A stretch of 64,000 nucleotides of DNA from a virus (taxonomy: Duplodnaviria; Caudoviricetes), in the IMG/VR virus record IMGVR_UViG_3300049144_000095, positions 64,001 to 128,000 of that record; one strand, given 5' to 3'. This document shows positions 36,829 through 61,434 of the stretch, piece by piece. The position numbers and the translations under genes are program-made. The stretch's first letter is position 1; each line of letters begins with the position of its first letter. The notes beneath the pieces are model-generated. The model had not been told where the DNA came from, ran no database searches, and was given only the letters and a program-made list of their open reading frames with translations.

Positions 36829-37245
36829 ATGGGCAACTACACGAACCGCGTTTCCCTGCTGCTGGCCGGGATCATCGCGTTGCTGATGGCTCCGTCGGGC
36901 GCGGCGGACGCGGCACCGATGGGCGGGACCCGCGTCGCGGCGGTGCGGTCCGTCTGTGAGACGGGGTACCGGGGGATGCCGGAGTACGACCGCTACTGCC
37001 TGGTCAACGGCACGGCGCGGGACGGGATGCGCCTGTGGTTCGCGGAGATCGACGGCAAGCGCTACAGCGTGCGGGAGCGGCGCGCGATGTGCCGGGACGC
37101 GCGGGCGACCGGCAGCATCCGGCGGGGTGCCATGGACCTGATGAACGACGTCGCCTACGACCGCTACCGCAACTACCGGGATGTCCTGCGGGTGACGGGC
37201 GCGGTCGCGGTGCTGGACTGCCGGGCGCTGGGCATCAAGGGCTGA
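36829..37245 (+). CDS. Secreted hypothetical protein
   Basis: Signal peptide ending ADA-A; 4 Cys. Confidence 0.65.
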   Translation: MGNYTNRVSLLLAGIIALLMAPSGAADAAPMGGTRVAAVRSVCETGYRGMPEYDRYCLVNGTARDGMRLWFAEIDGKRYSVRERRAMCRDARATGSIRRGAMDLMNDVAYDRYRNYRDVLRVTGAVAVLDCRALGIKG

Positions 37246-37262
37246 CGGTCGGGATCGGCTGA

Positions 37263-37299
37263 CGGGAGCGCCCCGGGGGACAACTCCGGGGCGCTGACG
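37263..37299 (+). repeat. Conserved intergenic hairpin element (GACG-tail class)
   Basis: CGGG-AGCGCCCCGG-loop-CCGGGGCGCT-GACG. Confidence 0.8.
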
Positions 37300-37384
37300 C
37301 CAACTTGTCGCGACGGACGTAAAGGCGTCCGGGACTTAATCCGGACCCGGCGGTTGCCGGGTCCGGCGGAAAGGAAAGTCACGC

Positions 37385-37645
37385 ATGGGAATCACCACGG
37401 TTGTCACCGATGGCGGAATGGTCTTCCTGGACGACGCGCCGTTGCCGGTGCGGTCGGAAGACGTCGAGCCGCGCGACTCGGCCACGGTGCCTTCGGCACT
37501 GCGGGACCACGCGCACACCGTTCTGCCGAACGAGCCGGGTGACTGGTGGACGGTCGGGGAGTTCCGGGACAGGGACGGGGAGTTCACCACGGCCGTTGCC
37601 CGGCGGATTCCGGACGGGGTCGTGCGGTACGGGACGTCCGACTAG
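37385..37645 (+). CDS. Hypothetical protein
   Basis: GCGGAAAGGAAAG leader. Confidence 0.65.
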   Translation: MGITTVVTDGGMVFLDDAPLPVRSEDVEPRDSATVPSALRDHAHTVLPNEPGDWWTVGEFRDRDGEFTTAVARRIPDGVVRYGTSD

Positions 37646-37697
37646 GCGCATTCGCGCGGGTCGGCGACAGGTTGTCGGAAACGGAGAGGAAACGGTC

Positions 37698-38036
37698 ATG
37701 GGTGTTTCGCTGAGCAAGCCGGGCGACGCGTTGGGCACGTGGAGCGAAGGGGTCGGGGTGAAGGGTGAGCCGGTGCGGGTCATGGCCGGACTGCCGGTCC
37801 GCAAGATCAGGGGGCCGGTGATCCGGGTGTCCGGAATGCGCTATGCGGGACGGAACATCGTGTCCGTCGCGGTGGAACCGGTGCTGGGTGACCGCATCGG
37901 ACAGTCCACGCTGATCGCGGCGGACGGGGTGGAGCACAGTTACGGAGACGTCGGGCCGCTGCTCCGTCTGCGGTTCTGGTGGCTGCGCCACACGATTGAC
38001 GCCGGAACCTACGCGGGCATCGGCCGGATGCGCTAA
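37698..38036 (+). CDS. Hypothetical protein
   Basis: ACGGAGAGG SD; MGVSLSKP. Confidence 0.6.
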   Translation: MGVSLSKPGDALGTWSEGVGVKGEPVRVMAGLPVRKIRGPVIRVSGMRYAGRNIVSVAVEPVLGDRIGQSTLIAADGVEHSYGDVGPLLRLRFWWLRHTIDAGTYAGIGRMR

Positions 38037-38044
38037 CCTGTTCG

Positions 38045-38056
38045 TGGCCTAGGCCG
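38045..38056. promoter_or_regulatory. Palindromic operator-like site
   Basis: TGGCCTAGGCCG; TAACCT at 38034-38039. Confidence 0.7.
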
Positions 38057-38078
38057 ACGGAAGGGAGAGGGGAACGGA

Positions 38079-38408
38079 ATGACGCAGAACATGTTGGGTG
38101 AAGCGGAGCGATTCTGGGACCAGGACGCGCGGGAGTTCGTCTCCGGGCACATCGTGGTGCGGGTCTCGTTCGCGATGGATCTGTCGAGGCAGTGCGCGGC
38201 CCGGGGCGTGATGCTCACGGACGACGGAACCGTGTACACGTGGACGATCCGGCGTCCCGGCCACGAGGACATGAACGGCTGCCGGAGGATCGCGACGCGG
38301 GTACGCGGGACGCTCCGGGACAACGCGTTCGGCCTGCTGGAGTTCGAGCGGAAGTACGTCGAGCCCGGCCTGTACGTGCGGTACGGCGCGGCGATCAGGG
38401 CGCTGTAG
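38079..38408 (+). CDS. Hypothetical protein
   Basis: ACGGAAGGGAG leader. Confidence 0.7.
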   Translation: MTQNMLGEAERFWDQDAREFVSGHIVVRVSFAMDLSRQCAARGVMLTDDGTVYTWTIRRPGHEDMNGCRRIATRVRGTLRDNAFGLLEFERKYVEPGLYVRYGAAIRAL

Positions 38409-38495
38409 GCACCGGGGAGTCGCGCTAGGGCGGCCGGGAGTCATTCCGGCCGCCCGGGGGTGTCGCCCGGCACTGAGGTACGGAAAGGGGAAGGC

Positions 38496-38966
38496 ATGTA
38501 CGAGGTTGTCCGACCGGAACGCAAGATCGGGACGTCGGACGGGTGGCGGACCGAGCCGGAACAGCGGCGCACGTTCCACACGGCGGCCGGTCTGTTCCGG
38601 TGGGCGCTGCGGGAGCGGGTGTTCAGTCACCGCACCGGCGGGGTGCCGTACCCGACCCGGTTCGATGACGTCCACCTGGGCGACCGGAACGGTGACGAGG
38701 GGTACGACTACCACCTGATCGACACGTTCACCCCGTGGGAGATCACGGGTGAGCATCTGGCCGCGATGCGCCGGGTGCAGCGCCGGTACGCGGAGATCGT
38801 TCACTACCTGCGGGAGGTCGAGCCGGGGTGGGAGCCGGACACGTCCGTGAGCCCGACCGGCAAGATCAGTTACGCGGACAACTCCGTGGTCCTGTACGAG
38901 ATCAGCAAGTACGGCGGGAAGCGGAGCCGGACGCTGGTCGCCCCGCACGGTGACGCCTGCTTCTGA
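38496..38966 (+). CDS. Hypothetical protein
   Basis: ACGGAAAGGGG SD; SYADNS motif. Confidence 0.7.
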   Translation: MYEVVRPERKIGTSDGWRTEPEQRRTFHTAAGLFRWALRERVFSHRTGGVPYPTRFDDVHLGDRNGDEGYDYHLIDTFTPWEITGEHLAAMRRVQRRYAEIVHYLREVEPGWEPDTSVSPTGKISYADNSVVLYEISKYGGKRSRTLVAPHGDACF

Positions 38967-39031
38967 CGGACCGGGACCGGCGGACGGGAGCGCCCCCGGG
39001 CGGGGCGTTCCAGCCTGCCTATCGCGGCAGG
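38964..39031 (+). repeat. Long-form hairpin element (two stems)
   Basis: TGA...GGCGGACGGGAGCGCCCC-loop-GGGGCGTTCCAG-CCTGCC-loop-GGCAGG. Confidence 0.85.
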
Positions 39032-39050
39032 TCGGAGAGGGGAACGGAAC

Positions 39051-39653
39051 GTGACGAACCGGACGGTTCGGTACGCGAAGGTGCGCACGGCGGGTGACTC
39101 GGACCGGAATGACGGGATCGGTGTTCAGTACGGAACGAACATCCCGCACCGGTCGATTCGAGATCTTCCGGTGGAGACATTCGCTTCAGTCATGCTGCGG
39201 GACAGGACGACGCGCGGCGCTTGCGCCAGGAAGGCAAGGGCGGAAAGGGGAGGAAAGGTGGGACAGATGCTTCAGGTTGTGGAACTGCGGGACGTACCGG
39301 CGCCGGGTGCGCCGCATCCGGAAAGCGGGTTCGAAGGATGGGTGCCGCTGGCGGACGCGATGGCGGCCGGGATCGACCTGTCGTACGTGACGGACGGGAT
39401 CGGCCCCCGGGTGCGCGGCATGGTCTACCGGGGCGGGTACCTGCGGAACGTCAGCACGGTGCACAACGTGTTCGTGTGCGTGGCTCCGGCGGACAGGGAC
39501 CCGGAGACGGGACGGCCCCGCCCCCGCCGTGCGGTGTGGTGGGATGTGGCGGAAGAGTCGGCCGACGACGACGGGCGGGTCCGGCGCCATATGACGTCAT
39601 GGCAGTACGACAGGGACAACAGGCCGTTGTTCATGGCGCTGAACGTCGGGTGA
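39051..39653 (+). CDS. Probable fusion: N-terminal paralog of 39743 gene plus second gene with own SD (start 39258/39267)
   Basis: MTNRTVRYAKVR resembles MANQTIKHAKVR; internal CGGAAAGGGGAGG SD at 39241. Confidence 0.6.
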   Translation: MTNRTVRYAKVRTAGDSDRNDGIGVQYGTNIPHRSIRDLPVETFASVMLRDRTTRGACARKARAERGGKVGQMLQVVELRDVPAPGAPHPESGFEGWVPLADAMAAGIDLSYVTDGIGPRVRGMVYRGGYLRNVSTVHNVFVCVAPADRDPETGRPRPRRAVWWDVAEESADDDGRVRRHMTSWQYDRDNRPLFMALNVG

Positions 39654-39719
39654 CAGAACCGGAGTCGGCGGACGGGAGCGCCCGGGATTCCGGGCGTTTC
39701 CACCTGCCTGCTGTGGCAG
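39651..39719 (+). repeat. Long-form hairpin element (two stems)
   Basis: GGCGGACGGGAGCGCCCGG-GATT-CCGGGCGTTTCCAC-CTGCC-loop-GGCAG. Confidence 0.85.
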
Positions 39720-39742
39720 CGACCTTCGGGAAGAGAGAAGAA

Positions 39743-39940
39743 ATGGCGAACCAGACGATCAAGCACGCGAAGGTGCGCGCGAAGGTGGACCCGGACCGCG
39801 AGGACGGGGTGAAGGGGCACGCGGGAGTCGGTGTCTACTTCGGGTCGAACGTCGCCCGCCGGGAGATGGAGGGGTTGCCGCTGGCCAAGTTCACGGCGCT
39901 TCTGCCCCGGGTGAAGACGACGCATGGGGTCTGTCACTGA
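39743..39940 (+). CDS. Small basic protein
   Basis: MANQTIKHAKVR...TTHGVCH. Confidence 0.65.
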   Translation: MANQTIKHAKVRAKVDPDREDGVKGHAGVGVYFGSNVARREMEGLPLAKFTALLPRVKTTHGVCH

Positions 39941-39965
39941 CGGAAGACAGGGAGAGGGGACGACG

Positions 39966-40205
39966 TTGGCAACCTGCTTGCCCCTGTATGCGCTGTACCT
40001 GTGCAGCGGATGGCTGATTCTGGATCGCGGGATCAAGTACCCGCCCGCCGCGCTGCGCAGAGAGGTTGCACTGAACGGCGTAGGGAGTTCACTGGGAGAC
40101 CGGTGGTTCAACGCCAGTCTGGCCGTTGCCTACCTGCTCGTCCTGCATGTGTGGCCGGTCGCCGTGTACCGGAAGCTGCGTCATGGACGCGTCGTAGGCA
40201 AGTGA
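39966..40205 (+). CDS. Small membrane protein
   Basis: TTG start after GGGAGAGGGG; two hydrophobic segments. Confidence 0.55.
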   Translation: MATCLPLYALYLCSGWLILDRGIKYPPAALRREVALNGVGSSLGDRWFNASLAVAYLLVLHVWPVAVYRKLRHGRVVGK

Positions 40206-40270
40206 CAGTCGGGATCGGCGGACGGGAGCGCCCGGGACTCCGGGCGTTCCAGCCTGTCAGTCGTGACAGG
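40203..40270 (+). repeat. Long-form hairpin element (two stems)
   Basis: GGCGGACGGGAGCGCCCGG-GACT-CCGGGCGTTCCAG-CCTGTCA-GTCG-TGACAGG. Confidence 0.85.
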
Positions 40271-40286
40271 AGGAAAGGGGAAGAGC

Positions 40287-40853
40287 ATGCGCACGCAGAC
40301 CACTCCGGTGCGGATGGAAACCAAGTACGGGGCGCTGTACATCGCCATCGAACCCGCCGACGAGTACAGCTACCGCGACACGGAGCGCGGGAACGTCATC
40401 GAGCTGCGGCCCCAGTTGCGGGTGTGCACCGCCCCGGAGTTCGAGGCGGACGCGGTGGCGGAGCACTGGACCATTCGGGGCCGGGCCTACACCATCCACG
40501 ACTTCATGATCTTCGACGCGCGGCGGGACGGGCGGTGGCACCGGCTCCGGTCGCCGTACATGGGAGGGTTCCGCAACGACCGCCGGGGTCCGGTGGAGTT
40601 CAGGACGGCGACGTTCGACCTGATGCGGGACACCGTGGTCACGGCGCTGGACGAGTTCGCGGCGCGTCACCCGGGATGGGAGGACGTCAGCCGCTACCTG
40701 CTGCACTCGAACAAGGCGACCGGCGCGGAGCTGGCGGCGATGGAGGCCCGTAGGGAGGCGGAGAGGTACGACGCGGAGGCGGCGGAGTTCCGGACGCGGG
40801 CGGAGCCCTTCGCGGCGGCCCTGTCGAAGAGCGGGATCAGCCTGACCGGCTGA
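40287..40853 (+). CDS. Hypothetical protein
   Basis: GGAAAGGGG SD. Confidence 0.7.
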   Translation: MRTQTTPVRMETKYGALYIAIEPADEYSYRDTERGNVIELRPQLRVCTAPEFEADAVAEHWTIRGRAYTIHDFMIFDARRDGRWHRLRSPYMGGFRNDRRGPVEFRTATFDLMRDTVVTALDEFAARHPGWEDVSRYLLHSNKATGAELAAMEARREAERYDAEAAEFRTRAEPFAAALSKSGISLTG

Positions 40854-40892
40854 CCGGACCCGGCGCGAACGGAAGCAAGGGAGGTGCGGGAC

Positions 40893-41084
40893 ATGGACGG
40901 AATGCGGCTCGAAGACGCTCCGCAATGGGTTCAGGATCTCGTGGTGGACAAGGCTCTCGGCTTCCTGGAGACGACCGAACAGGGCGAGCCGGTCCGGGTG
41001 GAAAGCGTAACGGACAGGATCGCAAAGATCCGGGTCGGAGAGTTCGTGTACACGGCCTTCCGCGCGGAGTGGTGGATCAGCTAG
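40893..41084 (+). CDS. Small hypothetical protein
   Basis: GGGAGGTG SD. Confidence 0.6.
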   Translation: MDGMRLEDAPQWVQDLVVDKALGFLETTEQGEPVRVESVTDRIAKIRVGEFVYTAFRAEWWIS

Positions 41085-41106
41085 GTACGGAAAGGGTGAG
41101 GAAACG

Positions 41107-41601
41107 ATGGACCTGATGCAGATGGCGGGTCACCTGTCACTGGAGTTCGGGGTCACGATGGAGGGGCCGTTCGGCGGTCCGCACATGCGAACCGTGCGGC
41201 TGTGGCTGCCGAACCGGCGCGGGGTGTCCCTGCTGGTCCGCGCGGGACACCACGACCCCGGAACGGCGGAGTTGCTGGTATTCCGGGAGAAGCTGCCGGA
41301 CCCGGACGTGATCTACCAAGGGATGACGCCGTGGCGGGAGGACTACTCGACGGTCGTCACGATCGACAGCCTGACGGTGGACATGGACAAGGCGCGTGCG
41401 GCGCTGCGGATCCTGCGGGAGCTGCCGGAGATCGACGTGCGGGACATGCGGGACACGCGGGAGCTGCGTTCGGCGGGGTTCGTCCACTACGGACACAGCA
41501 CCACGGCGTGCGGGAACCTGTGGCCGAACGACACCGTGACGGAGCACATCAAGGGCATCCGGTGCCTGCCGTGCATGGTGGAAGTGCACCGGCCGGTCTG
41601 A
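41107..41601 (+). CDS. Hypothetical protein with C-terminal H-C..CxxC zinc motif
   Basis: VHYG...TACG...IRCLPC. Confidence 0.7.
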   Translation: MDLMQMAGHLSLEFGVTMEGPFGGPHMRTVRLWLPNRRGVSLLVRAGHHDPGTAELLVFREKLPDPDVIYQGMTPWREDYSTVVTIDSLTVDMDKARAALRILRELPEIDVRDMRDTRELRSAGFVHYGHSTTACGNLWPNDTVTEHIKGIRCLPCMVEVHRPV

Positions 41602-41632
41602 TCCGGGCGAACGGAAGGGAGGGAGAGGGAAC

Positions 41633-41851
41633 GTGGCGGCATGGGACAAGATCACCCTGGAGGGTGAACACGGCCAGTACCAGACCAGGGTGGCGGAGCT
41701 GGACCTGATGATCATGCGCTACCTGCCCGCATCCGTGGAGGACTTGCGGGACCTGATCCGAGAGCGCCAGGGGGACCCCGACTACAACGTGTCCACAGTC
41801 ACGGAAGGTCTCATGATCCTGGCCGAACTGGACGGATACGCCATCAACTAG
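41633..41851 (+). CDS. Small hypothetical protein
   Basis: ACGGAAGGGAG leader. Confidence 0.65.
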   Translation: MAAWDKITLEGEHGQYQTRVAELDLMIMRYLPASVEDLRDLIRERQGDPDYNVSTVTEGLMILAELDGYAIN

Positions 41852-41870
41852 AACGGTCTGGGCGGTGATC

Positions 41871-41906
41871 TTCGGGGGCGTTCCGCTCTGCGGGACGTGC
41901 CCCGTG
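41871..41906 (+). repeat. Conserved intergenic hairpin element
   Basis: TTCGGG-stem-loop-CCCGTG. Confidence 0.75.
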
Positions 41907-41952
41907 GGTTCCCGGTCGGGGACACGGGTGATGAAAGGGAGTGAAGTAGAGG

Positions 41953-42480
41953 GTGCGGACCTACGGATACAGGGTCGGCGTTACGTCTCTGGACATGGAT
42001 CCCGAGACCAGCCTGGTCAAGCGTCTGGAGTTCAAGGCGCCGGACCGACATGCGGCTGAGCGCATGATCGACGTGTGGGCGGCGGTGGAACGCAAGACGA
42101 TCACGTCCCGGGTGCTGCTCGCTGACGGGGTCACGTTCCTGGAGGCCGGGAAGTTGCGGATCACCGGTCTCGCCATGGAACTTTCGAACATGTTCAAGGC
42201 GTCCGTCACCGGACCGTTCGAGTTCGGGTACGGCAGTGCGCCGGGCTGGGCGGTCCGCGTGATCATGCGGAACGGGTACGGCGTGAGCATCGCGACGGGC
42301 GGCCCGCACAAGAACGACCCGCCGCCGGTGATCGAGTTCACCACCTGCCACGACGACGGGACGTACGTGCGGTGGGACGTCTGCCCGGACGTGCTGATGG
42401 GCGGGCAGCGCGGGACCGAGGACGGCAGTACGGACCTGGACGAGATCGTCGCGGTCATGCGCAAGCTGCCGCAACCCTGA
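41953..42480 (+). CDS. Hypothetical protein
   Basis: NGYGVSI motif; array gene. Confidence 0.7.
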   Translation: MRTYGYRVGVTSLDMDPETSLVKRLEFKAPDRHAAERMIDVWAAVERKTITSRVLLADGVTFLEAGKLRITGLAMELSNMFKASVTGPFEFGYGSAPGWAVRVIMRNGYGVSIATGGPHKNDPPPVIEFTTCHDDGTYVRWDVCPDVLMGGQRGTEDGSTDLDEIVAVMRKLPQP

Positions 42481-42510
42481 CGGTAACGAACGGGTTACAC
42501 TCTGCGGGAA

Positions 42511-42522
42511 CGGCCTAGGTCA
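42511..42522. promoter_or_regulatory. Palindromic operator-like site
   Basis: CGGCCTAGGTCA; TAGAGT at 42538-42543. Confidence 0.7.
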
Positions 42523-42580
42523 TTGTCATTTCACCGCTAGAGTCTGCACTGGGATCGCGGAAAGACGGAAAGGGAAGAAC

Positions 42581-42940
42581 GTGAAACTGAACCTGCGGCA
42601 TTCGGACAACGCGGGTACGGAACTGTGGCGTCAGTACCAGGACGTCCTGAGGGCGGCGAGCGCGGCCGACCAGCCGGGAACGCTTCCGACGGGCGCGAGC
42701 AAGGTCACCGCTACCCCGGCGGGCGGGGAGCTGAGCCAGCTTCCGCCCGAATGGCAGAAGGAAGCCGCGCACGCCTCGCACGTCATCTACCACTACGGAA
42801 CACCGATCGCCTGGATCGACGTCCGGGACAACGTGTGGGTCGTGCCGCCGGAGAAGTACAGCCCGGGAACCACCGGCGCCCAGAACCGCATCCGCGACCG
42901 GCTCGGGAACACGCCGTACCGCACGGCGCCGGTGGGCTGA
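42581..42940 (+). CDS. Conserved phage early-type hypothetical protein
   Basis: IYHYGTPIAW...WVVP..KYS.GTT..QNRIR. Confidence 0.7.
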   Translation: MKLNLRHSDNAGTELWRQYQDVLRAASAADQPGTLPTGASKVTATPAGGELSQLPPEWQKEAAHASHVIYHYGTPIAWIDVRDNVWVVPPEKYSPGTTGAQNRIRDRLGNTPYRTAPVG

Positions 42941-42953
42941 CCGGTCGGTGACG

Positions 42954-42989
42954 TTCGGGAGCGCCCCGTGGAAGCGGGGCGTTCCAGTG
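42954..42989 (+). repeat. Conserved intergenic hairpin element
   Basis: TTCGGGAGCGCCCCG-loop-CGGGGCGTTCCAGTG. Confidence 0.85.
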
Positions 42990-43017
42990 CATTACCGGAC
43001 GGAATGGGAGAAGAGAA

Positions 43018-43323
43018 ATGATGGACGGCATCCCGATGGTGCAGCTCAAGGACGGCGCCTCGGTTCCGAAGGTGACCGTGACGACGGCACTCATGAACCT
43101 TCAGCACCTCCGCAACACCAACCCGGTCGCCCTGTTCGAGCTGGTGGAGATCGCCCGGAACCCCGGTCACGTGCCGTTCCCCGGGACGAAGGACGCACTC
43201 CAGAAGATGAGCATGCTTGACGGGTTGGGGAAGATCCACGACGACACCCGGAAGGTCATCGTCAACGCCATCCCGGGGGACCTCATGGAGCTGCGGATCG
43301 TCGACCCGATGACCGGCGAGTAG
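43018..43323 (+). CDS. Hypothetical protein
   Basis: ACGGAATGGGAG leader. Confidence 0.7.
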   Translation: MMDGIPMVQLKDGASVPKVTVTTALMNLQHLRNTNPVALFELVEIARNPGHVPFPGTKDALQKMSMLDGLGKIHDDTRKVIVNAIPGDLMELRIVDPMTGE

Positions 43324-43332
43324 GGGACGGAC

Positions 43333-43521
43333 ATGACGGACGCGGAGTACGTGGGGCGGGAGTTCCGTAAGGCGCTCAAGGACCGTGACGGTGGGCCGGT
43401 CGAGACGGTCCGCGTCAAGGCGGAGGGGCCGACGGGGAGTTCCCGCTGGGTCACCGTGAGCGTGGGGACGTGGGAGCGGATGATCGCCGCCGGGGTGGCG
43501 GCGATCGGGAAGAGTGAGTGA
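43333..43521 (+). CDS. Small hypothetical protein
   Basis: VKAEGPTGSSRWVTV; weak resemblance to 55123 gene. Confidence 0.6.
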   Translation: MTDAEYVGREFRKALKDRDGGPVETVRVKAEGPTGSSRWVTVSVGTWERMIAAGVAAIGKSE

Positions 43522-43958
43522 TGGGGCACCGGGTCACACAGCGGCACGTCGAAGAGGTCAACCGGGGCGACCTGATCCAGGTTGCGGGCGGGTACGTCAT
43601 CGCGGACACCCTGAGTGCGCGCTCCGCGTCCTCGGCGGACCTCACACCCGTGCCGTTCTGGTATGACACGGACGGCGAGAGGCACTACCCGAACCCGACG
43701 GACAACACGCTGACGGTGGTGGACGACCCACCCTTCCAGACGCACGCGCACGGCCGGAGCGCCGGGAAGGACGCCGCCGGGCATGCGCTGGACAAGGCGG
43801 ATGCGGCGCTGTGCCCGGACGGGCGACGGTCCGGGACGCTGGACAAGTTGGAGTCCGGCACGGCCCTTGCGGCTGTCACGTGCAAGCCGTGCCGCCGGAT
43901 CATCGGGCTCGTCGGCCAGGCGCGCGGGGAGCGCAAGCGCGAGAGCAACGGGATCTGA
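43518..43958 (+). CDS. Hypothetical protein with H-C..TCxxC zinc motif
   Basis: THAH...ALC...VTCKPC. Confidence 0.65.
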   Translation: MMGHRVTQRHVEEVNRGDLIQVAGGYVIADTLSARSASSADLTPVPFWYDTDGERHYPNPTDNTLTVVDDPPFQTHAHGRSAGKDAAGHALDKADAALCPDGRRSGTLDKLESGTALAAVTCKPCRRIIGLVGQARGERKRESNGI

Positions 43959-43960
43959 TC

Positions 43961-44140
43961 ATGGCGGAGACCTGGGACGGCCGGAACACCATGGTCTGCA
44001 CGTACGGGGGCGGCATTTCCGTGCTGACCACGGGCGGCGGGAAGCCTAGCGAAAGCGTCCAGTACACAGCGGAGGAGGCCCTGAAGCTGGCTGAGGAGAT
44101 CGCCGACGTAGCGCGTCGACAGCTCAGCGATCAGGGCTGA
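43961..44140 (+). CDS. Small hypothetical protein
   Basis: MAETWDG; coupled. Confidence 0.6.
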   Translation: MAETWDGRNTMVCTYGGGISVLTTGGGKPSESVQYTAEEALKLAEEIADVARRQLSDQG

Positions 44141-44154
44141 CGGAAGGGGGAGGC

Positions 44155-44358
44155 ATGGACGGACTGACGGCGGAGGAAGTTGCCCGGGAGATCCGGGCGG
44201 AGGTGGAGATCGCGGACGAGGCGGACGACTTGGCCGCGCACCGCGCCCTGCGGATGCTCTCGAACAGGTTCAGCCGCTTGTTCATGGAGCGGAACCCCGG
44301 GTTCAGCGTCCCTGTGTTCGAGCGGGAGTGCGGACTGGTCGAGGACCGGGATTCATGA
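44155..44358 (+). CDS. Small conserved phage-type protein
   Basis: NPGFSVPVFEREC (NPxF...F..AC pattern). Confidence 0.65.
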   Translation: MDGLTAEEVAREIRAEVEIADEADDLAAHRALRMLSNRFSRLFMERNPGFSVPVFERECGLVEDRDS

Positions 44359-44654
44359 CGGTCCGGCTGGTCGCCGTGGATCCCTGGGACTGCGGCTGCA
44401 ACGAGTGCTGTACGGGCGAGTACGTTGCGCTCCGTTTCGCGACGGACGAGAACGTCGCGGACATGCTGGCCGGAAGGCTGGCGAACCACCTGAACAACGG
44501 GACGGAACTGGACGTCACGACCACGTACCGGGTCGATTCGACCGGCAGGCGCACGGAGTTGGCGGCGGAGCGGGTCACGGTCATCTACACGCACTACGAC
44601 GGGCAGAGCAAGACGTGGGAGCCGGACCCGTACCGTGCGGGCCTGATCAAGTAA
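44355..44654 (+). CDS. Conserved actinophage-type protein
   Basis: VDPWDCGCNECCTGEYVAL. Confidence 0.65.
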   Translation: MTVRLVAVDPWDCGCNECCTGEYVALRFATDENVADMLAGRLANHLNNGTELDVTTTYRVDSTGRRTELAAERVTVIYTHYDGQSKTWEPDPYRAGLIK

Positions 44655-44676
44655 GACGGAAAGGGAGGAAACAGAA

Positions 44677-45159
44677 ATGGCGCAGTTCACGGAGACGCCG
44701 GGCCGCGAACGCAACCCCCTCGGCGGGCGGGAGGCCGACGGCTTCGATCAGTGGTTGCGGGAGGCCACGCAGCTCATGGGGGAGTCGGAGGACAGCCTCC
44801 GAGAGGAACTGCCCCTGGGTAACCCCATGCGCTACGTGGCCGTCGAGGCCTCCGCTCACTACGGGCGGATGCTGGGTGCCTGGAAGGAAGTCAGCAAGGG
44901 TCACGGGGGCGACGGGGCGCGGGACCGGTTCGAGGTCAACCTGATCTCGGCGGTGATGAGCGCCCACGGTGCGGCGGAGTACGCCCGGAGCCGGAGGTAC
45001 GGTCCGGACGACACCACGGCGGGCGGGCGGCCGATGGCGGACGTCGGGGCGGAGTACCTGCGGGCGTGCACGATCCTCGCGAAGTACGTGGGCGTCAACG
45101 AGCTGGACGTGCACGCCTGCGGCGGGGACCAGGCCAAGCTGTCCGCCCTGCGGGCCTGA
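44677..45159 (+). CDS. Hypothetical protein
   Basis: ACGGAAAGGGAGG SD. Confidence 0.7.
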   Translation: MAQFTETPGRERNPLGGREADGFDQWLREATQLMGESEDSLREELPLGNPMRYVAVEASAHYGRMLGAWKEVSKGHGGDGARDRFEVNLISAVMSAHGAAEYARSRRYGPDDTTAGGRPMADVGAEYLRACTILAKYVGVNELDVHACGGDQAKLSALRA

Positions 45160-45175
45160 CGGAAGGGGCGGAACG

Positions 45176-45412
45176 GTGGGCGTCGAATACACCGACCCGG
45201 GCAAGGTGTCGGAGGTCAGCGTCACACAAGTGCCGGTCAGTGGACAGACGGCGACCAGGTACGGGGCGAAGATCCCGACCTGTCACATGATCAAATACGA
45301 CGGTGCGTGGCGGAGGGTCTATGTCATGAACTACTCAACCCCGTACGTCAGGGTCACGGGACGCGATGTGGTGCTGGACTCGGAGACTCAGCACCGGCTG
45401 AACGTGATCTGA
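45176..45412 (+). CDS. Conserved phage early-type protein
   Basis: YGAKIPTCHMIKY...WRRVYV..YS. Confidence 0.65.
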   Translation: MGVEYTDPGKVSEVSVTQVPVSGQTATRYGAKIPTCHMIKYDGAWRRVYVMNYSTPYVRVTGRDVVLDSETQHRLNVI

Positions 45413-45425
45413 CGGAGCGGCGATC

Positions 45426-45464
45426 TTCGGGGCGGCACGGGGGGTGACTCCGTGTGGCTCCGTG
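45426..45464 (+). repeat. Conserved intergenic hairpin element
   Basis: TTCGGG-stem-loop-TCCGTG, then GGTCGGACGATCC shared with 46617 copy. Confidence 0.75.
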
Positions 45465-45497
45465 GGTCGGACGATCCGGACGGAAAGGAGTGGGGGC

Positions 45498-45689: not shown

Positions 45690-45712
45690 GGCCGACGGAA
45701 AGGAGTGGGAAC

Positions 45713-46114: not shown

Positions 46115-46125
46115 GGGGGTTACGG

Positions 46126-46602: not shown

Positions 46603-46616
46603 AGGGACCGACGTAC

Positions 46617-46654
46617 TTCGGGGGTGCGCGGGAGTGATCCCGCGTGCCTCCGTG
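46617..46654 (+). repeat. Conserved intergenic hairpin element
   Basis: TTCGGGGGTGCGCGGGA-GTGA-TCCCGCGTGCCTCCGTG. Confidence 0.8.
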
Positions 46655-46685
46655 GGCCGGACGATCCAAGCGGAAGGGAGAGAAC

Positions 46686-47991: not shown

Positions 47992-48005
47992 CCGAAGCGT
48001 GCCGG

Positions 48006-48040
48006 TTCGGGAGGGTGCGGCGCAGCCGTGCCTTCCAGTG
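48006..48040 (+). repeat. Conserved intergenic hairpin element
   Basis: TTCGGGAGGGTGCGGC-GCA-GCCGTGCCTTCCAGTG. Confidence 0.85.
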
Positions 48041-48076
48041 CCAGTACGAAACGGACGGAAAGGACAAGAAACGATC

Positions 48077-49237: not shown

Positions 49238-49624
49238 GTGACTGACACCTGGCGGGTCGAAGACATCCCGGCCTATCAGTTCGACGGCAGCGGACGGCGC
49301 CCGATGACGGACGAGGACGCGGCAATGTCCGCCCCGTCCGTTCTGATCAGGGACGTCACGCTGGAGGAGGCGCAGCGCAAGCTGTTCGGACACCTGACCG
49401 CCAACCGTGAGTACGCCAAGCGGCGCAACGGGGACCGCGCCTACACCGAGGCAATCGAGGCTCTGGGGCGCGGTGTCCGCATGGTCCAGGTCGGCGGGCG
49501 GGGTTTCCGCATCAGGGACGTCGCCGCCTGTGAAGGAGAGCACGGCCTGTACAAGAACTGCGCGGTCTGCACCCCCGAGAACCACCCGAAGTTCGATCCC
49601 ATCGTCCTGCGTCCGTACCGCTGA
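49238..49624 (+). CDS. Hypothetical protein
   Basis: GGAAAGGG SD; C..H...CAVC tail. Confidence 0.65.
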   Translation: MTDTWRVEDIPAYQFDGSGRRPMTDEDAAMSAPSVLIRDVTLEEAQRKLFGHLTANREYAKRRNGDRAYTEAIEALGRGVRMVQVGGRGFRIRDVAACEGEHGLYKNCAVCTPENHPKFDPIVLRPYR

Positions 49625-49633
49625 GCGGGGATG

Positions 49634-49681
49634 TTCGGGAAGATTCGGAGTCTTCCACTCCGGATTCCGAATCTTCCAGTG
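49634..49681 (+). repeat. Conserved intergenic hairpin element (longest stem)
   Basis: TTCGGGAAGATTCGGAGTC-loop-GATTCCGAATCTTCCAGTG. Confidence 0.85.
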
Positions 49682-49735
49682 CATCTCTGACCGGTGACGA
49701 ACAACCCGAATCGGAACGAAATAGGAGAAGGAGAC

Positions 49736-50430: not shown

Positions 50431-50441
50431 CGGCGGGAGCA

Positions 50442-50480
50442 TTCGGGAGGGTTCCGGGCTGAATTCGGAACCTTCCAGTG
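50442..50480 (+). repeat. Conserved intergenic hairpin element
   Basis: TTCGGGAGGGTTCCGGG-loop-TTCGGAACCTTCCAGTG. Confidence 0.85.
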
Positions 50481-50530
50481 TGTTCCTGATCCACATGAAC
50501 ACCTTGAATCTTGACGGAAGGGAGTAAAAG

Positions 50531-52287: not shown

Positions 52288-52299
52288 CCGCCCCTGCGG

Positions 52300-52335
52300 T
52301 TCGGGCGTGCACGGATCTCGCCGTGCACGCCCGTG
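52300..52335 (+). repeat. Conserved intergenic hairpin element
   Basis: TT-CGGGCGTGCACGG-loop-CCGTGCACGCCCG-TG, perfect 13-bp stem. Confidence 0.85.
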
Positions 52336-52361
52336 TTGTACAGACGAAAGGGAGAGCGAAG

Positions 52362-52731: not shown

Positions 52732-52917
52732 ATGACGAGCATCGCACGCATGATCGAAGTGCTTCAGAACGTACCGGAGGGGATGCAGGGCAAGACGCTC
52801 GTCCTGTTCGGCCCGCAGGGTCAGCGGTGGACGGTGCGGGAGGACGTCACTCAGCTCAACGTGCAGGGGGACGAGATCCACGTGTTCGTCGAACCGCAGG
52901 AGCGGCCCTCCGTGTGA
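52732..52917 (+). CDS. Small hypothetical protein
   Basis: ACGGAGGGG SD. Confidence 0.6.
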   Translation: MTSIARMIEVLQNVPEGMQGKTLVLFGPQGQRWTVREDVTQLNVQGDEIHVFVEPQERPSV

Positions 52918-52953
52918 TTCGGGAGCGCCCGGAGGGGGCCGGGCGCTGACGTG
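52918..52953 (+). repeat. Conserved intergenic hairpin element (GACG-tail class)
   Basis: TTCGGG-AGCGCCCGG-loop-CCGGGCGCT-GACGTG. Confidence 0.85.
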
Positions 52954-52984
52954 TCCCACGGAGGCAACGGAAGGGGAAGCGCAA

Positions 52985-53224: not shown

Positions 53225-53237
53225 TCACCACGCGTCA

Positions 53238-53270
53238 CGGGAGCGTCCGGACTCGCGCCGGGCGCTGACG
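53238..53270 (+). repeat. Conserved intergenic hairpin element (GACG-tail class)
   Basis: CGGG-AGCGTCCGG-loop-CCGGGCGCT-GACG. Confidence 0.75.
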
Positions 53271-53312
53271 CGTCTCGTGGTGAGACGTAATCGAACGGAC
53301 TGGAGAAGAGAC

Positions 53313-54983: not shown

Positions 54984-55040
54984 ACGCCTGGACGGTAATT
55001 CAGGCAAGAGTCACGAACGGGCTACTGAGTTCTGCTATCG

Positions 55041-55052
55041 TGGCCTAGGCCG
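55041..55052. promoter_or_regulatory. Palindromic operator-like site
   Basis: TGGCCTAGGCCG abutting extended -10 TGCTATCGT (55033-55041). Confidence 0.75.
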
Positions 55053-55057
55053 ACGGG

Positions 55058-55099
55058 TTCGGGAGTGGCCGGTCCTTCACGGGACCGGCCACTGACGTA
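55058..55099 (+). repeat. Conserved intergenic hairpin element (GACG-tail class)
   Basis: TTCGGG-AGTGGCCGGTCC-loop-GGACCGGCCACT-GACGTA. Confidence 0.85.
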
Positions 55100-55122
55100 C
55101 TTGCCGGACACGGAAGGGAGAA

Positions 55123-56845: not shown

Positions 56846-56941
56846 GCGATTGAGCGGGAGGCGCCCCAGGATCACCGACCTGCGCCGGGGGTCCGGGAGT
56901 GTCGCCGGTCAAGGCGGCGGGACGGAAAGGAGGCAAGGGAC

Positions 56942-58984: not shown

Positions 58985-59071
58985 CAGGGGGGGGCGCCCT
59001 AGGGTGTCCGGCTCCGGCCGGGCACCCGGGAGTGCCGCTCACAGGGAGCGACACGGAAGGGAGAAGAGACG

Positions 59072-59161: not shown

Positions 59162-59222
59162 CAAGCTGCACCGGGGCGGCCGGTACCCTCCGGCCGCCCC
59201 CCACCGGAGGGGAAGGAACGGG

Positions 59223-59699
59223 ATGCTCAAGAAGCGGTTCATCGTCGTCTCACGCAGTGCTGGAAGCGTGGATTCGATCCAGGCTCTTCGGGGCCGGTTC
59301 ACGGGGGATCTGGCGAGTGTCGACGTGGCGTTCGACGAGATCGCCGGAGCTGCGGAGGCGATCGAACACGATCTCAAGGGGCGAGGGGTGAAGCCGAGGA
59401 CGGCTACCCGCCTCGCCTGGGACATGTCTCGCACGCAGGTCGGGTTCATCCATCACGTTCCCGAAGCCGCTGACATGTACTACCGCATTCTAATCGCCCA
59501 CTTCACGTCGAACAAGAGACCGATCACCCCGGGGCTGAGCGTGCGGGACTACGACCAGCGGAAGGGCGTGGTCACGGCAGCTCAGTTCATGGCCGACTCC
59601 CCCATGGCCCCCGGAGGGGTCTACCACGACGGCTGGTACTACGTGGAGGCCAACCGGGAGGCCAAGAGGTACCAGGGCTCGAAGCTGGTGGCGCTGTGA
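59223..59699 (+). CDS. Hypothetical protein
   Basis: GGAGGGGAAGG SD. Confidence 0.7.
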   Translation: MLKKRFIVVSRSAGSVDSIQALRGRFTGDLASVDVAFDEIAGAAEAIEHDLKGRGVKPRTATRLAWDMSRTQVGFIHHVPEAADMYYRILIAHFTSNKRPITPGLSVRDYDQRKGVVTAAQFMADSPMAPGGVYHDGWYYVEANREAKRYQGSKLVAL

Positions 59700-60046
59700 T
59701 CACGCGAGAGCAGGCGGAACAGGCTCTGGCCTGCATCCGGCGACAGTTCCGGGTGGAGGTCGGCATCTACGGTTCCGAGCCGAAGCTGATCGAGAACTGG
59801 AAGCCCTTCGTGTGGGAGGGCCGGGAAGTGCACACCGAGCCGGTCCCTTTCGCCATCCTGTGGGAGGAGGGGCCAGATCACTGGGCGGAGCGGGCAAGAA
59901 CGGGCGGCGTGGACGAAGAGCTGACCCTGGAAGCCAGGGACTTCGACAAGAACTACGTCGTCGAGACTCCGGCGGCAACAGGCTGGCCGGAGGGCGTGGG
60001 GCAGTCGGCCTACTTTTCATGGGTGCTCACCCTCTACTCGGAGTGA
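59696..60046 (+). CDS. Hypothetical protein
   Basis: GTGA overlap; ILWEEGP.HW motif. Confidence 0.7.
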   Translation: MITREQAEQALACIRRQFRVEVGIYGSEPKLIENWKPFVWEGREVHTEPVPFAILWEEGPDHWAERARTGGVDEELTLEARDFDKNYVVETPAATGWPEGVGQSAYFSWVLTLYSE

Positions 60047-60065
60047 AGGACGGAGAGGCGGAATC

Positions 60066-60356
60066 ATGGGCGAGGTGAACACCAGCTACATCTACGCGTC
60101 CGTCGTGACGGATGGCGAATTCATCGACTCGCAGGAGTGGGACGGGATTCTCGACACGTATAAGGTCGAGTTCTACCTGACGGGCCCTCTCAACGTGAAC
60201 ACGCAGAACGATCTGCGTTATGGGTACGCCCTGTCGGGAGATGAGGCGTCCACTCTTCGGGATGGATTTCCTTCTGTTGACGATGCGGAAAAGCACGCCC
60301 GCCTGGTCATGCGTGCACACGACGCGAAGGCCTCACACATGGAGGCCCCCTTCTAG
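60066..60356 (+). CDS. Acidic hypothetical protein
   Basis: ACGGAGAGG SD. Confidence 0.65.
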   Translation: MGEVNTSYIYASVVTDGEFIDSQEWDGILDTYKVEFYLTGPLNVNTQNDLRYGYALSGDEASTLRDGFPSVDDAEKHARLVMRAHDAKASHMEAPF

Positions 60357-60400
60357 GGCTGAGATCGCCCTCGCCGGAACGGAACGGAGAAGAAAAGGTC

Positions 60401-60940
60401 ATGGAGAAGGCTGCTCACTGGGTACTGGACGGGCCGATCGAGTACGACGCCGGGGATCTCGGCGGTGACATCCAGCTCGGCCCGGCAGTCTCGGCCCGCT
60501 TCCGGAGCGACGACTGCCCGGAGGCGCGGTTCGAGGTCATCGCATACGTCACGGCGAAGACGTACTCGGAACTGGGCGAGTCGGAGCCGGACTGCCCGCA
60601 CGAGATGACCGTCCTGGAGCGCAGTGCCGACGGCGGTGTCCGGCGGGCGAAGATGCCGGAGGAGCACTCGGCGTGCTCCTGGAAGCCAGGAACGGTGGAT
60701 GTGCAGGCGCAGTACGTATATCGGATGAACGGCCGCGTGGACGAGTACGGCAACTACGAATCCGACGGCACCGACGAGATCACCTACGAGTGGGTCGGGA
60801 ACAACATGGGCTACCCCGGCGACACGCTCTCCTGGCAGCTTCACGTCGCCAAGCAAGACGCCCGACGGTACGTGGAGCGCTACGTGACCCGGGTGAACGA
60901 TTTCCTGGTGTGGGACGGCCGTACACGGCCGAACGGCTGA
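60401..60940 (+). CDS. Acidic hypothetical protein
   Basis: GGAGAAGAAAAGG leader. Confidence 0.7.
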   Translation: MEKAAHWVLDGPIEYDAGDLGGDIQLGPAVSARFRSDDCPEARFEVIAYVTAKTYSELGESEPDCPHEMTVLERSADGGVRRAKMPEEHSACSWKPGTVDVQAQYVYRMNGRVDEYGNYESDGTDEITYEWVGNNMGYPGDTLSWQLHVAKQDARRYVERYVTRVNDFLVWDGRTRPNG

Positions 60941-60960
60941 AAGACGGAAAGGGGAACGAG

Positions 60961-61389
60961 ATGGGCTGGGTACTGCACGAGGAGCCCTGGACGGACGACG
61001 GCGAGTACTCCCCGCTTCAGGTCGGGAAGGCCGCGCACATTCGCTTCAGGCACACGGACAAGCCCGGACGGCTGCTGACCATGAGTGCCTACCCGATGGC
61101 GCCGGAGGTCGAAGTCGTGACTCATAAGGACACGGTCGAGACGTTCCACGGCTACAAGGCCGACATGGACAAGCTCGCGGTCGAAGTACACACCGAGTTC
61201 ATGATCTGCGACGACATCCGCGACCCCGGGGGCACCGAGAACTGGTGCGACTACCGGTGCAAGCGCCTCAACACCGCCTACAGCGGCATCGATGGCGAGA
61301 AGGTTCGGGCGGCCGAGGCGGACGCTCTGAAATTCGTCCGCCGCTTCAACGGCGAGCGGGACATCGACTGGGACGGCGAGCGGTTCTGA
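60961..61389 (+). CDS. Hypothetical protein
   Basis: ACGGAAAGGGG SD. Confidence 0.7.
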   Translation: MGWVLHEEPWTDDGEYSPLQVGKAAHIRFRHTDKPGRLLTMSAYPMAPEVEVVTHKDTVETFHGYKADMDKLAVEVHTEFMICDDIRDPGGTENWCDYRCKRLNTAYSGIDGEKVRAAEADALKFVRRFNGERDIDWDGERF

Positions 61390-61398
61390 GCCGGTGCG

Positions 61399-61434
61399 TT
61401 CGGGAGGACAGGACGCGCGTCCTGTCCTCCAGTG
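61399..61434 (+). repeat. Conserved intergenic hairpin element
   Basis: TTCG-GGAGGACAGGAC-GCGC-GTCCTGTCCTCC-AGTG, perfect 12-bp stem. Confidence 0.85.

Follow-up and report, generated by a model that had tools for sequence, protein, structure and literature searches.

A family of structured intercistronic hairpins in the early-gene array of a large Streptomyces phage, with a candidate role in transcript processing

The early-gene array and its hairpins

The DNA considered here is a window of 64,000 nucleotides from the 251-kb genome of a Streptomyces phage (G000). Its early genes form an array punctuated by hairpins, each of which lies between a stop codon and the following ribosome-binding site. 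A covariance model, R1, which also supplies the bit scores listed below for each element, finds 18 copies in this genome, all on the gene strand and together spanning 29 kb. Two of them lie beyond the window end (window-equivalent positions 64872-64940 and 66402-66460), and the remainder of the 251-kb genome holds no additional copy according to the model, whose scores step from 35 to 22 bits. Scores on the reverse strand are about 40 bits below those on the sense strand. The first-pass annotation had described 16 such hairpins, all on the + strand; every one of them is present with the layout that was proposed, all are strong folds, and the strand assignment extends to 18 of 18 copies.

The box of the hairpin stands 11-21 nt from the upstream stop codon in 14 of the 18 copies and 25-56 nt from the downstream start codon in 16 of them, a space into which a promoter would not fit; only ordinary purine-rich ribosome-binding sites are seen at the downstream genes. 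Copies have clearly multiplied through duplication, for example in the tandem element-plus-gene units at 38964-40270. Bare box sequences at suitable spacing occur at 79 unrelated viral loci, of which 77 score nothing with the model, and the family is not due to chance. The features of the window are the following (z, RNAfold score against dinucleotide shuffles):

37251..37311, + strand: Element 1, box variant ACGGGAG...CUGACG; R1 48.7 bits; z -5.5; single extended hairpin; syntenic orthologs in G001 and Satis
38973..39025, + strand: Element 2, GACGGGAG...CCAGCC subfamily; R1 45.4 bits; a small second hairpin follows
39661..39714, + strand: Element 3, GACGGGAG...CCAGCC subfamily; R1 50.2 bits; z -4.8; within the tandem element-plus-gene duplication
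40211..40264, + strand: Element 4, GACGGGAG...CCAGCC subfamily; R1 55.4 bits; z -4.6
41861..41916, + strand: Element 5, UUCGGGG...CCCCGUG variant, with G.A replaced by G-C; R1 37.8 bits
42944..42999, + strand: Element 6, UUCGGGAG...UCCAGUG type; R1 57 bits; z -5.5; orthologs in G001 and Satis
45416..45474, + strand: Element 7; R1 44.6 bits; z -5.7
46607..46664, + strand: Element 8; R1 43.2 bits; z -4.2
47996..48050, + strand: Element 9; R1 51.6 bits; compensatory changes against the G001 ortholog
49624..49691, + strand: Element 10, long upper stem; R1 51 bits; z -6.9
50432..50490, + strand: Element 11; R1 53 bits; orthologs in G001, Satis, Frankenweenie and Kela
52290..52345, + strand: Element 12, UUCGGGC...GCCCGUG variant; R1 47.7 bits; z -4.9
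52908..52963, + strand: Element 13, UUCGGGAG...CUGACGUG variant; R1 54.4 bits; z -3.8
53226..53282, + strand: Element 14, CUGACG variant; R1 41 bits; z -2.5; orthologs in G001 and Satis
55035..55051, + strand: promoter-like -10 (TATCGT) and GGCCTAGGCC palindrome, abutting Element 15
55048..55109, + strand: Element 15, CUGACG variant; R1 48.9 bits; immediately 3' of the promoter-like site
61389..61444, + strand: Element 16; R1 51.5 bits; z -5.9; three pairs with compensatory changes relative to the G001 ortholog

Fold, mismatch box and covariation

In each element a GC-rich upper stem of variable sequence stands on a conserved box (5'-UUCGGG / CC(A/C)GUG-3'). Below the box comes a lower stem, likewise variable, which begins at or near the upstream stop codon, is rich in mismatches and covaries as well. 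Upper stems measure 10-19 bp and carry variable loops of 3-9 nt; in 46 of 59 copies 13-16 nt separate the box from the loop, which puts the box approximately in the middle of the helix. This interrupted helix has a median of 25 bp in a continuous hairpin (62 distinct copies). The family is larger than originally described, both in its 18 copies and in the continuation of each one below the box, which brings the interrupted helix to about 25 bp. Across the 16 window copies z ranges from -1.8 to -6.9, with values of -3.5 or lower in 14, and a single extended hairpin is the fold of 15. For Element 12, an alternative pairing takes the place of the lower stem in the MFE fold.

Within the box the pairing order is U.G or G-C, a U.U or A.C mismatch, an invariant C-G, G.A or G-C, and then G-C pairs. 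The C is invariant in 48 of 48 distinct copies from four phages and is paired with G in 47. No copy has a regular pair at the position beside it, which is U.U in 36 and A.C in 12; the first-pass annotation was right about the recurrent base, 5'-UUCG / xGUG-3', and its U-U mismatch. A G.A or G.G mismatch also frequently flanks the invariant pair; the G.A is exchanged for G-C in 19 of the 48 copies, and the universal mismatch is only the U.U or A.C one. Three variants of the box interchange, even between orthologs (CUGACG vs CUCCAG).

Both stems are recovered by RNAalifold with compensatory changes at 18 of 20 pairs, as was anticipated from the variable stems that always pair, through G-U pairs and compensatory changes. 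In the 48 distinct copies 91.7% of the cells are paired, against 30-48% with slid partners, percentages that are somewhat inflated because the alignments were fitted to the model, and double changes are found in 217 cells. Among 12 pairs of syntenic orthologs in G000 and G001, 15 double and 22 single changes keep a pair vs 14 that break one. Identity between orthologs is 97% (5') and 90% in the box halves, 78-86% in the stems and 46% in the loops. Element 5, for instance, is 92% identical to its G001 ortholog, yet the flanking DNA gives no blastn match, while the orthologs of Element 11 (G001, Satis, Frankenweenie and Kela) keep box and lower stem and have a remodelled upper stem. G-U pairs number 159 vs 24 A-C, and therefore it is the sense strand that folds. 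The earlier view that a folded single strand is recognised, rather than a double-stranded DNA motif or a plain terminator, holds: it agrees with the stem covariation, the excess of G-U over A-C, the conservation of the box beside free loops, and the absence of a U-tract.

Relatives, transcription context and possible function

The covariance model detects 9-17 copies in each of five related large phages, namely Satis, Frankenweenie, Kela and two known from IMG/VR genomes. A sixth relative, an incomplete IMG/VR record, has at least three, so the family is not absent from related genomes. In the three BM-cluster phages, a model built from the studied genome alone finds 12, 13 and 17 copies, with E-values down to 3e-10. 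The copies of the relatives are on one strand, clustered, and in many cases at orthologous gene junctions; in Satis, at least 8 of 12 occupy junctions orthologous to those of G000 copies. At least seven phage genomes retain the box, with flanking proteins 30-55% identical. At gathering scores no Rfam 15 model matches within 104 kb, nor does any at E up to 1 in window positions 36000-64000, and the BM genome papers make no mention of these elements. The family thus seems undescribed, as the first-pass annotation supposed, and is best read as a lineage-specific structured RNA element that the sense transcript of the early-gene array carries.

The layout recalls that of integron cassettes: the array is made up of small orphan genes on one strand, and behind each comes an imperfect hairpin that has conserved base boxes and a free centre. 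The elements might then be single-stranded DNA sites for recombination or replication, either attC-like or PeSL-like junctions at which early genes are shuffled, or signals for priming. DNA hairpins also tolerate G-T pairs, a tyrosine recombinase is encoded by G000, G001 and G006, and lineage-specific genes, many of which occur in the arrays, adjoin elements, as do one tandem duplication and, as a purely descriptive observation, some indels. This explanation is nevertheless highly improbable: Satis, Frankenweenie and Kela, the three cultured BM phages, carry 12-17 copies and no tyrosine recombinase (PF00589 absent), the recombinase of G000 is about 30 kb away from the array, G000 has no serine recombinase, and the sequence of the box is itself unlike attC core sites. 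Moreover, three phages share largely colinear early arrays, in which the elements stay at orthologous junctions.

With respect to transcription, a scan of the array's + strand as far as window position 50999 gave neither a sigma-70-like promoter nor a U-tailed terminator. Nine copies stand in series between two promoter-like sites, putatively promoters, with no promoter among them. Only one of the 18 copies, Element 15, follows such a site, and the order TANNNT-GGCCTAGGCC-element is conserved for its orthologs in G000, G001, Satis and Frankenweenie; the GGCCTAGGCC palindrome has 32 copies genome-wide, 31 of them intergenic. No U-tract comes after the elements, whose 9-nt tails average 2.0 T; what lies 3' of the upper stem is the box, and then the arm of the lower stem. 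The canonical intrinsic terminator was rejected on this absence and on the lack of placement at the ends of transcription units, as far as the putative promoters delimit them.

A U-tract-less intrinsic terminator or attenuator would halt the host RNA polymerase, or make it pause, behind each early gene, so that expression is graded along the array; a phage antiterminator might lift this effect at a later stage. The hairpins are indeed strong, GC-rich and 11-21 nt past stop codons, generic long terminator-like palindromes of actinobacteria score 34-48 bits with the model, and the early region of phiC31 is reported to have the U-less terminators eta, etb and etc (Ingham et al. 1995, cited in PMC3993855). 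We consider this role unlikely. The mycobacterial RNA polymerase is reported to require a U-tract (PMC3993855), and even modest termination at each of nine promoterless serial copies would be expected to silence the distal genes. One copy is placed immediately 3' of a promoter-like site in four phages, a terminator does not need a conserved mismatch box with a covarying lower stem, and phiC31 has no member of the family (no significant match; best R1 score 16.6 bits, E 0.17).

The function that we tentatively favour, with a little less than even confidence, is that of RNase III-type intercistronic processing or stability signals of a long early transcript, because there is no U-tract, nine copies are in series without a promoter, and one conserved copy comes directly after a promoter-like site. 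The elements have the intercistronic position, the approximately two turns of double-stranded RNA (20-22 bp or more) and the distortion between stems of such signals. Bacterial RNase III reads helix geometry together with weak box preferences. An idealised substrate of the enzyme has 22 bp; a target that contains mismatches or loops receives single-strand cuts, which leave stabilising 3' hairpins (PMC3867540). The RNase III of S. coelicolor prefers G-C duplexes and cuts the internal loop of the rpsO-pnp intergenic hairpin (PMC10126417). We infer that a double-strand-specific endoribonuclease may act on the box, the simplest candidate being RNase III of the host (AbsB/Rnc). Against this, the rpsO-pnp hairpin and the 16S flanks, in one Streptomyces genome, contain no similar box, and no RNase III gene is encoded by the phage. 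A cut at the distorted centre of the helix would split the polycistronic early transcript into separate messages, the upstream one keeping the GC-rich upper hairpin as a 3' stabiliser and the downstream one gaining a defined 5' end 25-56 nt ahead of its start codon. Hammerhead-like ribozymes are found further down the same array, in the same position between stop codon and ribosome-binding site, and therefore the phage appears to use intercistronic cleavage.

We know of no requirement of bacterial RNase III for a fixed box sequence, and therefore the strong conservation of the box could point to a different, sequence-specific factor. In its general form, the box would be read by a dedicated RNA-binding protein, an early or virion protein of the phage or a host factor, that acts on the neighbouring cistrons through their translation, stability, antitermination or cleavage. 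The near-identity of the 5' box half among orthologs whose stems drift and whose loops are free agrees with it, as does the persistence of the same box next to such divergent proteins. Most array proteins match no family, and therefore the binding partner could hide among them. But no candidate protein was found, and the box variants interchange, therefore recognition of shape fits better than strict recognition of sequence; such a protein is improbable.

The box may also be the address label of a dedicated recognition system other than RNase III, which we regard as rather doubtful. In one form, a structure- and sequence-specific protein or nuclease, encoded by the phage or delivered with the virion, would process or gate some 18 early cistrons in the manner of Cas6 or Csy4; in the other, the box would belong to an attC-like single-strand site that, with a host recombinase, exchanges early-gene cassettes. 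If true, either form would give large actinophages a device of a new type, regulatory or evolutionary.

Stable intercistronic hairpins shield upstream messages in many operons, and the elements might be only passive barriers to 3' exonucleases, or insulators of cistrons, with the box kept through common ancestry and no specific recognition. The spread of copies through duplication accords with this, but common descent leaves unexplained both a box 90-97% conserved beside compensating turnover of the stems and its survival of protein divergence to 30-50% identity, and this explanation is very unlikely.

Comparison with known systems

Four roles had been suggested for the hairpins. The endoribonuclease processing site fits best, whereas the others fare worse. 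The N4 virion-polymerase hairpin promoter has a 5-7 bp stem and a 3-nt loop with conserved bases, and is used by the phage virion RNA polymerase. It was discarded here: stems are 10-19 bp, loops are 3-9 nt and not conserved, and no T7-like or beta-subunit RNA polymerase was detected, a weak negative with a silent PF00940 control. Antitermination sites are a poor fit too. The lambda boxB has a conserved loop read by N, and HK022 put is a two-hairpin unit after a promoter, with one or two sites per genome, while the loops here are free, the copies 18, and only one follows a promoter-like site.

Cassette shuffling is weakened by the colinear arrays and the cultured phages discussed above. Integron attC sites likewise are imperfect hairpins with conserved foot bases, a free centre and a strand-specific fold, one per small promoterless gene in a same-strand array, but their core sequences differ, the cultured carriers of the elements have no integron-type recombinase, and the junctions here are stable over long divergence. 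The PeSL of T4-type phages and the ESAS/SAS of cluster K mycobacteriophages also recur between small early genes and include a stem-loop. However, PeSL contains an early promoter, and none exists within the elements here, and SAS has a fixed sequence and sits at the start codon, in contrast to the ordinary ribosome-binding sites of this array.

The eta, etb and etc of phiC31 are likewise GC-rich, devoid of poly-U and located between early genes of a Streptomyces phage. They are not members of the family, which is defined by the conserved mismatch box and lower stem and whose arrangement argues against efficient termination. The hairpin sites of phage SP82 reportedly share sequence among copies; like the elements, they are early-mRNA hairpins of a large Gram-positive phage, but they are few and of unrelated sequence. 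They are reported to be B. subtilis RNase III sites of the early mRNA (Panganiban and Whiteley 1983, cited in PMC4838370).

The early precursor of T7 is punctuated by five RNase III signals, and where the enzyme cuts at their distortion, a 3' hairpin remains (PMC3867540). These signals (R0.3, R0.5, R1, R1.1 and R1.3) differ in having an asymmetric internal loop instead of single mismatches of fixed sequence, in lacking any sequence relationship with the family, in belonging to another host and RNase III, and in number, five against 18 elements whose cleavage is only predicted. They are, likewise, repeated interrupted intercistronic hairpins on a long early transcript made by the host polymerase, and their upper and lower stems, parted by a central distortion, span about two helical turns.

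The early gene array and its intergenic sites

The window comes from a 251,159-bp IMG/VR record, rated complete and derived from soil metagenomes, whose nucleotide matches among deposited phages are only short stretches of about 78% identity to 185-200-kb cluster BM Streptomyces phages (Satis, Kradal, Kela, JustBecause, and Frankenweenie). Onward from about position 34000 of the window runs a long array of small + strand genes with a strong G-over-C skew. Throughout window 34000-64000 the sense strand is strongly enriched in G over C (GC skew +0.08 to +0.19) and has more A than T, while the left 34 kb is without skew; speculatively, a C-poor early transcript might be resistant to Rho loading. 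Genes were called with a codon-usage caller made for this analysis, and their starts are approximate. The array proteins tested gave no Pfam family above threshold and a single PHROG, of unknown function. Five soil-metagenome DNA runs, and no RNA run, are listed as containing the stretch at window 40000-49999. In the left part, on the minus strand at 5150-5632, a 398-aa frame matches the tyrosine recombinases (PF00589, 79.9 bits); this gene is found in the present genome and in its IMG/VR relatives G001 and G006, and was not found in Satis, Frankenweenie, or Kela.

The array is punctuated by intercistronic hairpins, 16 of them in the window (elements 1-16), built around a conserved mismatch centre, the box (5'-UUCGGG / CC(A/C)GUG-3'), that lies between variable upper and lower stems. 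The layout described by the first-pass annotation was present at all 16 of its sites. Of the 18 copies in the whole genome, 14 have 11-21 nt between the stop codon and the start of the box, and 16 have 25-56 nt between the box and the next start codon. In the latter space, the lower-stem arm and a ribosome-binding site rich in purines leave no room for a promoter. A consensus scan of the array + strand over window 31000-50999 detected neither a sigma-70-like promoter nor a U-tailed terminator. A palindrome of the form (T)GGCCTAGGCC(A) occurs in 32 copies in the genome, 31 of which are intergenic.

Palindromes and the adjoining element (window positions)
8000, GGCCTAGGCC-type palindrome
10626, palindrome
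15820, palindrome
19792, palindrome
27105, palindrome
29103, palindrome
32829, palindrome
38047, palindrome, within the element-bearing array
42513, palindrome, within the element-bearing array
55043, palindrome, within the element-bearing array, abutting element 15
55048..55109, + strand, element 15
62631, palindrome, within the element-bearing array

By reading of the listed sequences, about half of the palindromes come directly after a TANNNT -10-like hexamer and many are located 20-30 nt before a start codon, which makes them look like genome-wide promoter-plus-operator sites for some regulator. Nine elements follow one another between the palindromes at 42513 and 55043, and the TANNNT-palindrome-element arrangement of element 15 recurs in G001, Satis, and Frankenweenie. 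The possibility that the elements are U-less terminators is weakened by this serial arrangement, by the missing U-tract, and by the conserved copy right after a promoter-like site, which makes little sense for a terminator; such a function would also leave the box and the lower stem unexplained. Tails with at least four T are found in 2 of 16 family hairpins versus 18 of 65 other hairpins of the genome, with no clear separation between the two sets.

Fold and definition of the hairpin family

The conserved bases of the hairpins, initially placed at the foot of the structure, are indeed conserved, but folding locates them in the middle of a helix that continues below the box for 8-14 further positions, with regular single mismatches and often as far as the upstream stop codon. 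Unconstrained folding with 25-nt flanks yields one unbroken hairpin, 25 bp long at the median; its arm between the invariant C and the loop is 13-16 nt long (46 of 59 copies), and the loop, of 3-9 nt, is unconserved. Compared with dinucleotide shuffles, the individual elements have z-scores from -1.8 to -6.9 (-3.5 or lower in 14 of 16). When the 16 window copies were aligned with two similar copies found just past the window, RNAalifold returned a 20-pair consensus covering both stems, with compensatory changes at 18 of the 20 pairs. The covariance model built from these copies, run on the whole genome, recovers exactly the same 18, all on the + strand and spanning genome 101.2-130.5 kb, after which the scores fall from 35 to 22 bits; the reverse strand at these copies scores about 40 bits lower.

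A larger alignment of 48 distinct copies from four phages defines the box more closely. All 48 copies have C in column 13, and in 47 it pairs with G. Immediately outside this C-G pair, the two bases never form a standard pair (U.U in 36, A.C in 12), and the next pair outward, U.G in 35 copies and G-C in 11, sets two subfamilies, UUCGGG...GUG and GACGGG...GCC, respectively. Just inside the C-G pair, G stands opposite A in 23 copies and opposite C in 19. A third box variant, CUGACG, has the G.A mismatch moved by one position plus a G.G mismatch, and in one ortholog pair the switch to or from this variant is the sole difference in box type. The alignment was fitted to the covariance model and its pairing figures lean towards structure, with a large margin: 91.7% of the cells are paired, compared with 30-48% after a shift of the partners by one to three columns, and 217 cells carry double changes, values that no shuffle reached. 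G-U pairs (159) far outnumber A-C pairs (24), where the estimated base composition of the strand predicts roughly equal numbers, and the sense strand is therefore the one that folds. Compensating stems with G-U pairs and the confinement to the + strand, both proposed from inspection of the sequence, are borne out by the alignment and the genome scan.

Two further observations concern the same intergenic regions. At window 38964-40270, a small second hairpin, which shows compensatory changes, comes after each of three near-identical elements, so that tandem element-plus-gene units are formed where G001 has a shorter, unrelated segment. Another conserved set of intergenic hairpins, smaller in number and framed by CTAGGG...CCCGGG, is located at window 38425-38458, 58999-59030, and about 56851-56932; it scores 18.7 bits with the model, under the threshold, and its parts match several places in G001 at 86-90% identity, above the conservation of the neighbouring genes.

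Distribution and conservation among phages

Trained on copies of the present genome only, the model finds at least 12 copies in Satis, at least 13 in Frankenweenie, and at least 17 in Kela (E-values down to 3e-10), all in annotated intergenic gaps and on the minus strand, the one that encodes the small hypothetical genes arrayed in the right arm. The 259.6-kb relative G001 contains at least 13 copies with E below 2e-4, besides two that score more weakly, each orthologous in position to a copy of the present genome, and two more IMG/VR genomes contain at least nine and at least three. Some of these whole-record searches scored the best 150 candidates, hence the lower bounds. In every carrier genome the copies lie on one strand and cluster within about 20-30 kb. 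The family, whose absence from related genomes had been considered at the outset, is thus present in cultured phages and IMG/VR relatives, and comprises no fewer than 60 distinct copies, with strong covariation, from seven or more genomes.

Two pattern scans, whose matches were mostly due to chance, served to check the specificity of the model. Among 79 viral loci with a bare box (two box sequences at a suitable distance, from viral contigs), 77 were negative and the other two belong to the IMG/VR relatives. Of 80 bacterial loci with a 17-mer from the 5' half, 79 were negative and one, from Xylanimonas, scored. This match and two in a 7.3-Mb Streptomyces genome (G009) were rejected, as they are long palindromes of a generic, terminator-like kind that lack the mismatch box; locus L211:3573-3637 (Xylanimonas oleitrophica) and G009:C1:572581-572640 (Streptomyces sp.) reach 44-48 bits. 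Long GC-rich palindromic hairpins of this kind after bacterial genes are the false-positive class of the model and are to be expected in bacterial genome scans. No Rfam family matches the elements (gathering scores over 104 kb; E up to 1 over window 36000-64000), a full-text literature search found no description of the hairpins, and the repeats mentioned in the two BM genome announcements are terminal repeats only. In agreement with the first-pass annotation, which knew of no such family in Streptomyces elements, this structured RNA is new to Rfam and, so far as the literature search shows, undescribed.

The arrays of the present genome and G001 are colinear, with 66-80% nucleotide identity in alignable genes, and share twelve syntenic junctions carrying elements. 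Across these twelve pairs, 15 pair changes are double and compensatory, 22 are single and keep the pairing, and 14 break or make a pair. Orthologous copies are 97% and 90% identical in the two box halves, 78-86% in the stems, and 46% in the loops; one element is 92% identical between genomes whose adjoining genes are no longer alignable at the nucleotide level. At the protein level, both genomes and Satis keep broadly the same array order at 30-80% identity, with many genes confined to one lineage, and at least 8 of 12 Satis elements sit at junctions orthologous to those of the present genome. Because the box is conserved, the stems compensate, and the junctions are orthologous across the three phages, the elements are, on this comparative evidence, old, fixed in place, and under purifying selection, and are not frequently moving repeats. 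An integron-like or PeSL-like role as DNA, akin to the cassette shuffling first suggested, is weakened by the stability of these junctions and by the absence of any tyrosine recombinase from three carriers (Satis, Frankenweenie, and Kela). Stem length, loop conservation, and copy pattern speak against the N4-type hairpin promoters and nut/put-like antitermination elements suggested at the same time. No phage RNA polymerase was found in the genome, a weak negative since the PF00940 control was silent.

A candidate role in transcript processing

Little is known about the organisation of early gene expression in large actinophages. We tentatively consider the elements to be RNase III signals in the phage early transcript on which the host enzyme acts, and give this slightly less than an even chance. 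Their features match the logic of the RNase III signals of other phages, whose role they would share. No phage-encoded RNase III was found in the genome, so the cutting would fall to the host RNase III. The idealised substrate of bacterial RNase III is 22 bp, and mismatches or loops in the target lead to single-strand cleavage that leaves a stabilising 3' hairpin (PMC3867540). The S. coelicolor enzyme prefers a G-C duplex and cuts at the internal loop of an intergenic hairpin (PMC10126417). Regarding the endoribonuclease site proposed earlier, size, mismatch centre, and position would fit. Farther down the + strand array, beyond the window, the space between a stop codon and the next ribosome-binding site is twice occupied by a sequence resembling a type II hammerhead, and the two have a common core:

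Genome 154020-154082 (14720-14782 of locus L008), + array, hammerhead-like sequence
Genome ~139255-139320, + array, hammerhead-like sequence

Against Hammerhead_II (RF02276), one of them reaches 30.4 bits, short of the gathering score, 37 (E 4e-4, 700-base scan). Their stop-to-RBS position in the same array suggests that intercistronic cutting is useful to this phage.

The weak point of the RNase III reading is the fixed box sequence, since no such requirement is known for RNase III. In one Streptomyces genome (G009), considered for host mimicry, neither the intergenic hairpin of rpsO-pnp nor the flanks of the 16S rRNA contain a UUCGGG / CCAGUG-like box, a finding with little weight either way. 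Binding of the elements by a dedicated RNA-binding factor is fully compatible with their conservation pattern, and is without a candidate protein. The cultured carriers Satis, Frankenweenie, and Kela have S. lividans or S. scabiei as hosts, and for S. coelicolor, to which S. lividans is closely related, RNase III mutants are available (PMC10126417); therefore, the proposed mechanism is directly testable. Should the elements prove to be RNase III signals, a Streptomyces RNase III would for the first time have a consensus-like substrate, and the hairpins would serve directly as insulators and stabilisers when genes are expressed polycistronically in Streptomyces; otherwise, the fixed box indicates an RNA-binding factor not yet known. 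A clean structured RNA family without an Rfam entry has been defined.

Among known systems, phiC31 is reportedly a case of U-less early terminators, and it differs in that the covariance model finds no family member there, a further point against the terminator reading. For RNase III signals, SP82 is a Gram-positive phage precedent, as cited in PMC4838370. The early precursor of T7 is punctuated by five such signals (PMC3867540), and the present elements resemble them as interrupted hairpins punctuating an early transcript.
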